Virus record (IMG/VR): IMGVR_UViG_2737471847_000003 | Location: 1 to 40,522 of that record | Direction: 5' to 3' (one strand) | Length of the DNA: 40,522 nt | Source: a virus | Lineage: Duplodnaviria > Heunggongvirae > Uroviricota > Caudoviricetes | In this document: piece after piece, positions 34,606-36,363 of the stretch | How positions within the stretch are numbered: position 1 is the first letter of the stretch | Layout: each line of letters opens with the position of its first letter | The notes under the pieces: model-generated | The model's input: only the letters and a program-made list of their open reading frames with translations | What the model was told of the DNA's origin: nothing | Databases searched by the model: none | Translations under genes and position numbers: made by a program

Positions 34606-36363
34606 CTATTTCATCAAGTAATCCAATTCATCCTTCATAGGTATAACTTGCTCATAAAGTCTATGGTAGGATTTTCCAATTGCCCCCCTAAATTGAATAA
34701 GTTTAGGGGAAAAGCTACCGATATTAATAATATGTTCTTGCGCTATACCAGGATATGGATCGATAAAAATAATCTCTGTCATACCTAACTGATAAGCTTT
34801 TTTAGCACAAAGTTCACAAGGGCTAGCTGTAGTATATAGTTTCCCTCCATTAATACCGACCCCACCATATTTGGCCAATTGCAAAAAAGCATTCTCCTCT
34901 GCGTGCAATGCACGGGTATGCACTTGATTCCCTTTCTTTTCATCATCAAGGCTGTTGTGAATATCTTTAAAACAATATGGCAAATTAAGTCCTTTAAAAA
35001 CAGTAGAACTTGAATCACTCGCCCTTATTTTTATTAAATTTTCTTTAACTTTACTCCTAAATTTTGTATTACTTCGTTCGTACAGGCTATATGTTCCCTC
35101 ATCAAAATCATGCAATAACCCATCAAATGACCTCATAGAACAAGGAACTTGACCTTTTGCTACATCGTTCCAACCAACTGACTTGATAGAGTTATCATTA
35201 TCTGTCACAACCGCCCCTACTTGCCTAGATATACATCCAGAATTTAGTTTTACAGTATATGCAACTTGCATAACCCTTTCCATGGCGGTAGGAGATATTA
35301 ATCCAGGGTGTTGCATTAATGATACATACCACGCAATTTGTGCTTTGAGAAAGTTATTATTATCAAATTCTTTTTTAGGGTTAAAAAAATGTATATCTGA
35401 AATTTCAATGCATTTTTTTACATTAGGATTAGTAAGATGATTATACTCGCCATCTCCTTTACCAGATTCTTCATCATTAATTTTTTTTATCTGTTCCTCT
35501 GAGAACTTATGTAATTTCTTTAAATATCTGGTTCGATGTTCATCTGGTGCATTTATAGAAACCAGATGGAATGCAGCATATCTATCTTTGAAGAATTTAG
35601 CTTCATACGGGTTACGTATCGCATCAATGACTATATACGCTTTATTATTCTTTACTTTTCTAATTATTTTAATAACACGATTAATTGTTTCAGGTAAATG
35701 AAAAACAGCCTTTGGAATAAAGTCTTGATTTTCATAATCTACATCAACCTTCCCTATTCTTCTAATTGACTTTCCTGCTGACTGATATAGCTCAATATAT
35801 AAACCTGGCTCTAGTTCATTTAATTCCCTTTTAAAATCCCGTGTAAATTTTCGAGTAAGAGTTAATATCCTAATAAAGGTATCTTTCCCCCTGCCTTTAA
35901 AGTCAATCTCATCATCATGATTAAGAAGATTTTTTATCACCTTAAGATATTTTATCTTCAACAAACTTTTAGCGAACACACCATTAACAACCAGTTTCTT
36001 AGCTGCCTTAAAGGAAATCGAATTTTCTTTTTTATCGGGGATTTTACTTGCAGAAAACTGAATGAATTTAGCTAAGGCCGATGGAGATAAAAGGAGCAAA
36101 TATATTGAAATGAGATCACTGACCTTTATCGAATAGAAGTTCTTCCAATGAGTCTCTGCAAAATTTTTTACTATTTCATAACGCCGCAAATCCAATCCTT
36201 TATAATACTCAGCCAAGACGTTACTATCTGGAAAAGATATTTCTTTTTGTTCTAAAATATTTGCTGCAGTAGTACATCCTGAGCCAGTTCTCCCAGTTAA
36301 ACCAATAAGAATAAATTGACTATTTTCTAAAAAAAGCTCACTAATAAATTTGTGTTCTCTCAT
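34606..36363 (-). CDS. Nucleotide-kinase-like / cytidine-deaminase fusion; candidate dCTP-deaminase-type anti-phage protein
   Basis: 585 aa; N-terminal P-loop-like GLTGRTGSGCTT (Lys replaced by Cys); C-terminal zinc-deaminase signature HAEENAF...SPCELCAK around 34810-34905; AT-rich; convergent with int, 13-bp gap. Confidence 0.6.
   Translation of the reverse strand: MREHKFISELFLENSQFILIGLTGRTGSGCTTAANILEQKEISFPDSNVLAEYYKGLDLRRYEIVKNFAETHWKNFYSIKVSDLISIYLLLLSPSALAKFIQFSASKIPDKKENSISFKAAKKLVVNGVFAKSLLKIKYLKVIKNLLNHDDEIDFKGRGKDTFIRILTLTRKFTRDFKRELNELEPGLYIELYQSAGKSIRRIGKVDVDYENQDFIPKAVFHLPETINRVIKIIRKVKNNKAYIVIDAIRNPYEAKFFKDRYAAFHLVSINAPDEHRTRYLKKLHKFSEEQIKKINDEESGKGDGEYNHLTNPNVKKCIEISDIHFFNPKKEFDNNNFLKAQIAWYVSLMQHPGLISPTAMERVMQVAYTVKLNSGCISRQVGAVVTDNDNSIKSVGWNDVAKGQVPCSMRSFDGLLHDFDEGTYSLYERSNTKFRSKVKENLIKIRASDSSSTVFKGLNLPYCFKDIHNSLDDEKKGNQVHTRALHAEENAFLQLAKYGGVGINGGKLYTTASPCELCAKKAYQLGMTEIIFIDPYPGIAQEHIINIGSFSPKLIQFRGAIGKSYHRLYEQVIPMKDELDYLMK

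Follow-up and report, generated by a model that had tools for sequence, protein, structure and literature searches.

Two E. coli genes of the anti-phage dCTP deaminase family, from strains AW1.7 and U09, were previously found to provide phage defence, with that of U09 being narrower than that of AW1.7 (Tal et al.). With the AW1.7 enzyme dCTP is depleted during infection, and defence is lost on introducing the P-loop substitutions G29A/C30A and likewise with C370A/C401A; both domains are needed for defence by the tested homologues, and T7 escape mutants map to the RNA-polymerase modifiers gp5.7 and gp0.7 (Tal et al.). In the AvcID system, the gene for the small RNA AvcI (DifV) directly precedes avcD on that gene's strand, and the RNA must be at least 152-174 nt long (Hsueh et al., doi 10.1101/2021.03.31.437871; PMC10511110). 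AvcI inhibits the deaminase AvcD (DcdV) and decays once transcription stops, and AvcD is activated by transcription shut-off; AvcI RNAs have no sequence signature in common (Hsueh et al., PMC10511110). AvcD deaminates both dCTP and dCMP, and the defence that it provides is not abortive infection (PMC10511110).

A cargo hotspot between int and att has been described in P2-like prophages (bioRxiv 10.64898/2026.02.27.708500); the 2022 hotspot paper did not describe this slot in E. coli P2-like phages. We here analyze a gene lying in such a slot, in a stretch of 40,522 nucleotides of viral DNA (positions 1 to 40,522 of IMG/VR record IMGVR_UViG_2737471847_000003; "the window" below). Judged by its sequence, the gene is very probably a moron (cargo gene) of a 186-like P2-family prophage integrated at ssrA and encodes an anti-phage dCTP deaminase that works as a single-gene system.

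The deaminase gene and its family

The gene spans 34606..36363 on the minus strand, starts with ATG and codes for 585 amino acids. A first-pass annotation, made from the letters of the window alone, had described this ORF as a P-loop-like segment followed by a C-terminal deaminase signature, and both parts were located. The P-loop-like segment, GLTGRTGSGCTT (36268..36303, minus strand; aa 21-32), is a non-canonical Walker-A-like loop in which the frame GxxxxGK[ST] is represented by G24..G29-C30-T31, so that Cys30 occupies the position of the lysine, as the annotation had also stated. It belongs to an N-terminal P-loop NMP-kinase-like domain with large helical insertions (35299..36315, minus strand; aa ~17-355), which also holds a Walker-B-like strand, AYIVID, with Asp247 as its last residue (35623..35640, minus strand; aa 242-247). 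The C-terminal zinc-dependent dCMP/cytidine deaminase domain (34747..35283, minus strand; aa 361-539) contains the catalytic His487-Ala-Glu489 (34897..34905) and the zinc-binding Pro515-Cys516-Glu-Leu-Cys519 (34807..34821), both on the minus strand; the corresponding motifs HAEENAF and SPCELCAK begin at aa 487 and 514, and 29 residues lead from His487 to Cys516. Cys377 and Cys408 (35140..35235, minus strand), which sequence alignment equates with C370 and C401 of the AW1.7 enzyme, also align with Cys19 and Cys49 of T4 dCMP deaminase. The gene has a G+C content of 33%, compared to 55% in the structural genes of the prophage.

The profile searches that had been proposed for this protein retrieved a match to dCMP_cyt_deam_1 (Pfam, E=4.8e-15), with the dCMP/cytidine deaminase zinc-binding region at aa 361-533, and weak matches to kinase families at the N-terminus. 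The PADLOC dCTPase model (PDLC02373) was matched with E=2.2e-146 and 487 bits. For the NCBIfam equivalog NF041025, "anti-phage dCTP deaminase", the score was 420.5 bits (cut-off 400), and all 437 model positions (1-437) were aligned. Such scores lie far outside what chance would produce. At every residue the protein equals RefSeq WP_001206704.1, to which PGAP gives that same name. When compared with the published defence proteins, it was 76% identical over its full length to the AW1.7 enzyme (WP_045268677.1), and the residues mutated in that enzyme were kept: G29, C30, C377 and C408 are identical in the two proteins and vary little or not at all in the family alignments. As in the described family, a kinase-like N-domain and a zinc deaminase C-domain are joined in a protein of more than 350 aa, and the gene is found on a mobile element, namely in a prophage cargo slot of varying content; the same prophage has type II restriction-modification genes as well. 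Profile, sequence and fold thus agree with the kinase-like plus deaminase architecture of anti-phage dCTP deaminases.

These comparisons support the assignment of the 585-aa gene to the published anti-phage dCTP deaminase family. The suggestion that it is a candidate nucleotide-depletion defence gene is likewise supported, by the NF041025 and PADLOC matches, by identity to WP_001206704.1 and by the similarity to AW1.7. The gene, its family, the outline of its mechanism and its genomic slot are already known from the literature and from RefSeq annotation. WP_001206704.1 occurs on 403 contigs in a public collection, and near-identical DNA was found in 7 of 5,426 complete E. coli genomes; 38 records are listed in total once diverged alleles with the same annotation are added. 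A phage protein family, phrog_8118, spans the whole protein (1168 bits) and is labelled "unknown function" in PHROGs v4, so that phage-centred annotation pipelines would miss the deaminase gene. Many distant family members are 760-860 aa long (representatives P0149, P0153, P0167, P0168, P0174, P0175 and others); the query aligns to about their first 590 residues, indicating an extra C-terminal region of ~200 aa there.

Searching 1.84 billion cluster representatives retrieved 450 relatives at E<=1e-30, of which the best 150, being 36-56% identical to the query and at most 50% identical to each other, were aligned. Cysteine was found at position 30 in 130 of the 138 representatives with an aligned P-loop and lysine in none of the 138, with position 25 being Arg or Lys in 124/138. 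Asp247 is present in 145/150 representatives, and the catalytic residues are conserved across the 150. Among 51 closer homologues (58-83% identity) the segment GLTGRTGSGCT is invariant. In these alignments the Cys-for-Lys P-loop is a hallmark of the family and not a peculiarity of the window gene. Being near-universal in the family, the substitution is a selected feature rather than decay, and it is needed for defence by AW1.7.

An AlphaFold2 model built from the 51 homologues (mean pLDDT 77.5, pTM 0.73) presents an NMP-kinase fold followed by a dCMP-deaminase fold, with residues 242-247 predicted as a beta strand. Structure searches, like the profiles, returned a deaminase, and the nearest solved structures by both sequence and fold were phage and cellular dCMP deaminases. 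Neither sequence nor fold searches retrieved a solved structure of a full-length relative, and a literature search found no structural or mechanistic study of the kinase-like domain. We infer that this domain most likely binds nucleotides or has a regulatory role, instead of transferring phosphate; the earlier idea of a "nucleotide sensor rather than a kinase" is a hypothesis for the whole family and not for the window gene alone.

A cargo slot between int and attR

The gene had been placed between int and attR, and this position holds. A 47-nt perfect direct repeat flanks the prophage: the attL core (358..404, plus strand) lies inside an intact ssrA gene, with the complete tmRNA gene at 40-402, and the attR core (36586..36632, plus strand) is a duplicate of the ssrA 3' end, the right end having the ssrA fragment only. 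A P2/186-type tyrosine integrase is encoded at 33579..34592 on the plus strand, convergent with the deaminase gene and, as had been noted, with 13 bp between the two stop codons. The positions of int and of the repeats therefore put the deaminase gene between int and the right-hand att of a ~36.2-kb prophage. The neighbouring genes, as annotated in near-identical DNA, encode CI, a Rha-family (Apl-like) protein, CII, Fil, Dam, a replication endonuclease and P2-type structural proteins, which identifies the prophage as a 186-like member of the P2 family.

The slot is recurrent and its content varies. Salmonella phage SEN8 shares the ssrA att site and has an empty slot, the att arm following the int stop codon after at most 3 bp; homology to SEN8 stops at window position 34576 and restarts at 36472. 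A prophage of E. coli 23-AB02114, which carries other cargo, gives comparable limits (34582 and 36470). The inserted module is therefore ~1.9 kb long, has a G+C content of 33% and consists of the ORF and ~106 bp upstream of it, followed by the phage attP arm (36472..36585) with its repeated GGCGGCA motifs, which is kept in relatives with other cargo or none. Other genes fill the same int-att slot in Klebsiella prophages. In 23-AB02114 (L004:4115-5371) it holds a gene for a 418-aa protein of no Pfam family, on the same strand as int, which is a candidate for a defence gene not yet recognised.

Other 186-like prophages have three more deaminase alleles (70-83% identity) at this position: the U09/FDAARGOS_1337/ETEC1747 type, the E1433 type and the Citrobacter braakii type. 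The window slot therefore fits the described int-att hotspot, being empty in SEN8, filled by the 418-aa gene in 23-AB02114 and occupied by four deaminase alleles, and the int-att junction of 186-like prophages at ssrA can be said to carry a dCTP deaminase gene repeatedly. Elsewhere, alleles were found on an integrative conjugative element (LF82), on a serine-recombinase element (LR-29-1) and on integrase islands (AW1.7, Citrobacter freundii and Providencia).

In the best DNA match, E. coli 300709 (L018, NZ_CP025903.1 3071113-3088050), the prophage is a ~16-kb remnant in which the tape-measure and scaffold genes are truncated and cI, int and the deaminase gene are intact. In this strain, one of the seven genomes with an identical gene, the defence cargo has outlived its phage.

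Several other features of the window were recorded. Relative to SEN8, a second cargo insertion of ~1 kb (472-1467) lies beyond att, between the attL-proximal terminator and gpD; it contains a 237-aa ORF (576..1289, plus strand) with an N-terminal transmembrane helix and ~42% G+C, for which Pfam, PHROGs and PADLOC gave no match. A type II restriction-modification pair (23595-26616), composed of a restriction enzyme (23595..25553, plus strand) and a C5-cytosine methyltransferase (25576..26616, minus strand), occupies the classical P2 "old/tin" hotspot between portal and replication genes and has a G+C content of 33-39%; the prophage therefore unites a cytosine methylase and a dCTP deaminase. Inside the attP arm, a near-consensus sigma-70 promoter (36547-36576, plus strand; TTGAAA-18-TATAAT, 11/12 matches) faces the attR core, the duplicated ssrA 3' fragment and the ssrA terminator (36691-36705), and it may be a by-product of the AT-rich Int/IHF sites. 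A second integrative element (36836-40519) adjoins attR, so that the two elements are stacked in tandem at ssrA. It encodes a P4/CP4-57-type integrase (36836..38077, plus strand) and a 767-aa ORF (38216..40519, minus strand) that matches positions 488-1255 of the 1258 in phrog_18693 (labelled as of unknown function); given this partial match, the ORF probably runs on past the window.

Control of the deaminase and its proposed action

Comparison with prophages and phages that do not have the gene delimits a cargo-specific AT-rich segment of ~106 bp upstream of the gene (36364..36471, minus strand), with an AGGTG Shine-Dalgarno sequence. The gene presumably has its own promoter here, even though the scan returned no upstream site at or above its threshold on the minus strand, and no consensus promoter was seen. 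Hand-picked hexamers (TTGCAA-17-AATACT; TGTTATAAC) were dropped as promoters because they are weak.

In view of the Vibrio system, it might be asked whether the gene is the toxin of an AvcID-type type III pair, in which a small RNA encoded 5' of it, perhaps extending over the att arm or the 5' coding region, has escaped detection, inhibits the deaminase and would decay upon phage shut-off of host transcription. AvcI control is known for homologues in V. cholerae, V. parahaemolyticus, P. mirabilis and ETEC, and a 79-aa ORF (36421..36660, minus strand), 5' of the gene and in the same orientation, resembles the "small hypothetical ORFs" that guided the choice of DifV candidates (Hsueh et al.). 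The space available is small, however: the cargo's own upstream DNA measures only ~106 bp, and the next 114 bp are the attP arm that is common to cargo-less phages. The 222-nt upstream region folds no better than shuffled sequence (z=-1.24); a 337-nt region, which includes the tRNA-like att core and the ssrA terminator, has z=-2.22. An Rfam E-value scan of 34000-37000 retrieved only the tmRNA fragment and sub-threshold noise.

Nor did the upstream regions of related alleles point to a common RNA. When 400-700 bp upstream regions of 12 loci were compared pairwise with blastn, only att sequences were shared, among the prophage loci, and those of the AW1.7, Providencia, LF82 and LR-29-1 alleles had no similarity to the upstream region of the window gene or to one another. 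In a five-sequence alignment, the last ~100 bp before the ATG are poorly conserved. The AW1.7 construct that defended MG1655 without induction had 83 bp upstream of the ATG, less than the minimal AvcI. The ETEC H10407 AvcD locus, for which AvcI was experimentally tested, was not among the blastn-detectable alleles of the E. coli genomes. Since AvcI RNAs share no sequence similarity, the failure to detect one is in itself weak evidence. Taken with the other observations, a Vibrio-type upstream AvcI is unlikely in this subfamily, and we regard an RNA antitoxin for the window gene as improbable.

A tentative possibility, which we would not put above one of several, is that the enterobacterial prophage and island alleles work without an AvcI-type antitoxin, that the deaminase is held off in another way and that the family has two modes of control. 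One candidate for the alternative switch is the pseudo-kinase domain with its invariant Cys P-loop. Another candidate is the lysogenic cI-int transcript, which converges on the deaminase gene and could read into it in antisense. No terminator-like hairpin was found between int and the deaminase gene (34593-34605), so that the cI-int transcript would run antisense through 34606-36363 to the ssrA terminator; in the U09-type allele, with ~380 bp between the stop codons, no terminator was detected either.

As a defence enzyme, the deaminase would be expressed constitutively in the lysogen from its own short AT-rich upstream region, and would be inactive in uninfected cells, as the non-toxic published homologues suggest. 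Activation would then come from a lytic phage taking over or shutting off host transcription, in the way published for homologues. The zinc domain, probably through His487/Glu489 and Cys516/Cys519, would convert dCTP, and probably dCMP, to dUTP/dUMP, and the collapse of the dCTP pool would stall phage DNA replication, as published for AW1.7. The N-domain, with its NMP-kinase fold and Cys P-loop, would be required for this activity, most likely in the nucleotide-binding or regulatory capacity proposed above. Phages of the P2/186 type use host RNA polymerase for their whole cycle and would therefore not set off their own cargo, so that the gene may protect the lysogen and its prophage from competing phages.

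Deaminases can also serve other ends. A metabolic dCMP deaminase of the T4 Cd/ComEB type, supplying dUMP for thymidylate in prophage replication, would be in line with the phage-borne location and with the nearest solved structures; but the match to the ComEB model TIGR02571 has 41.5 bits, where 219.45 is the cut-off, and covers aa 483-537 alone, the protein is three times the size of such enzymes and has an obligatory N-terminal domain, the gene is missing in close phage relatives or swapped with unrelated cargo, and the tested close homologues deplete dCTP and block phages, all of which makes this role highly implausible. Equally remote is an APOBEC- or TadA-like enzyme that mutates phage DNA or RNA rather than acting on the nucleotide pool, as the weak Pfam matches to APOBEC_N, MafB19-deam and NAD1 and the Foldseek matches to TadA (E~1e-3) are outweighed by best sequence and fold matches to free-nucleotide dCMP/dCTP deaminases, and no evidence of genome or transcriptome editing by the AW1.7 enzyme was seen (Tal et al., Figure S2 legend).

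Comparison with known systems

As an anti-phage dCTP deaminase, the locus adds one natural allele to a characterised nucleotide-depletion defence, and little beyond the correct annotation. The residual novelty lies in how the family is controlled and not in this locus, which offers a compact natural test case for the role of the Cys-P-loop domain and for the need of an RNA antitoxin in E. coli alleles.

The AW1.7 protein has the same two-domain architecture as the window protein, with HAE and PCxxC kept. It is slightly shorter (576 aa versus 585 aa), the window protein having an 8-residue insertion near aa 102-110. The AW1.7 gene sits in an integrase island beside tRNA-Phe, whereas the window gene sits in a prophage, and the DNA upstream of the two genes is unrelated.

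The U09 gene is closer in setting. The window protein is 71% identical to the U09-type allele (locus L003, E. coli FDAARGOS_1337), and the synthesized U09 sequence (Tal et al., Table S5), which takes in both the core and the arm of the ssrA-derived att site, is colinear with L003. Of the two examples on which the family was founded, one therefore comes from the int-attR slot of a 186-like prophage, where it lies, like the window gene, between int and the att site derived from ssrA and converges on int; the U09 and window loci differ in the gap between the stop codons, which is ~380 bp in U09 and 13 bp in the window.

By its published description, AvcID (DcdV/DifV) of V. cholerae VSP-1 shares with the window protein the P-loop-kinase-like plus dCMP-deaminase architecture, and the His-to-Cys spacing of 29 in HAE...PCxxC is the same in V. 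cholerae DcdV (H382 to C411). In AvcD both domains (PLK and DCD) are required and transcription shut-off activates the enzyme (Hsueh et al., doi 10.1101/2021.03.31.437871). AvcD has 532 aa and is under the control of the 5' sRNA AvcI, whereas for the window gene no such RNA was detected upstream and there is little room for one.

More distant are T4 dCMP deaminase (1vq2) and the PBCV-1 bifunctional dCMP/dCTP deaminase (7fh4), which are single-domain metabolic enzymes of 140-190 aa; unlike the window protein, they have no kinase-like domain and are not defence proteins. Bacterial defensive dGTPases and human SAMHD1 follow the same strategy of dNTP depletion in infection, and T7 gp5.7 mutants escape dGTPases and the dCTP deaminase alike (Tal et al.). 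Their fold and chemistry are unrelated, being those of triphosphohydrolases rather than of a deaminase.
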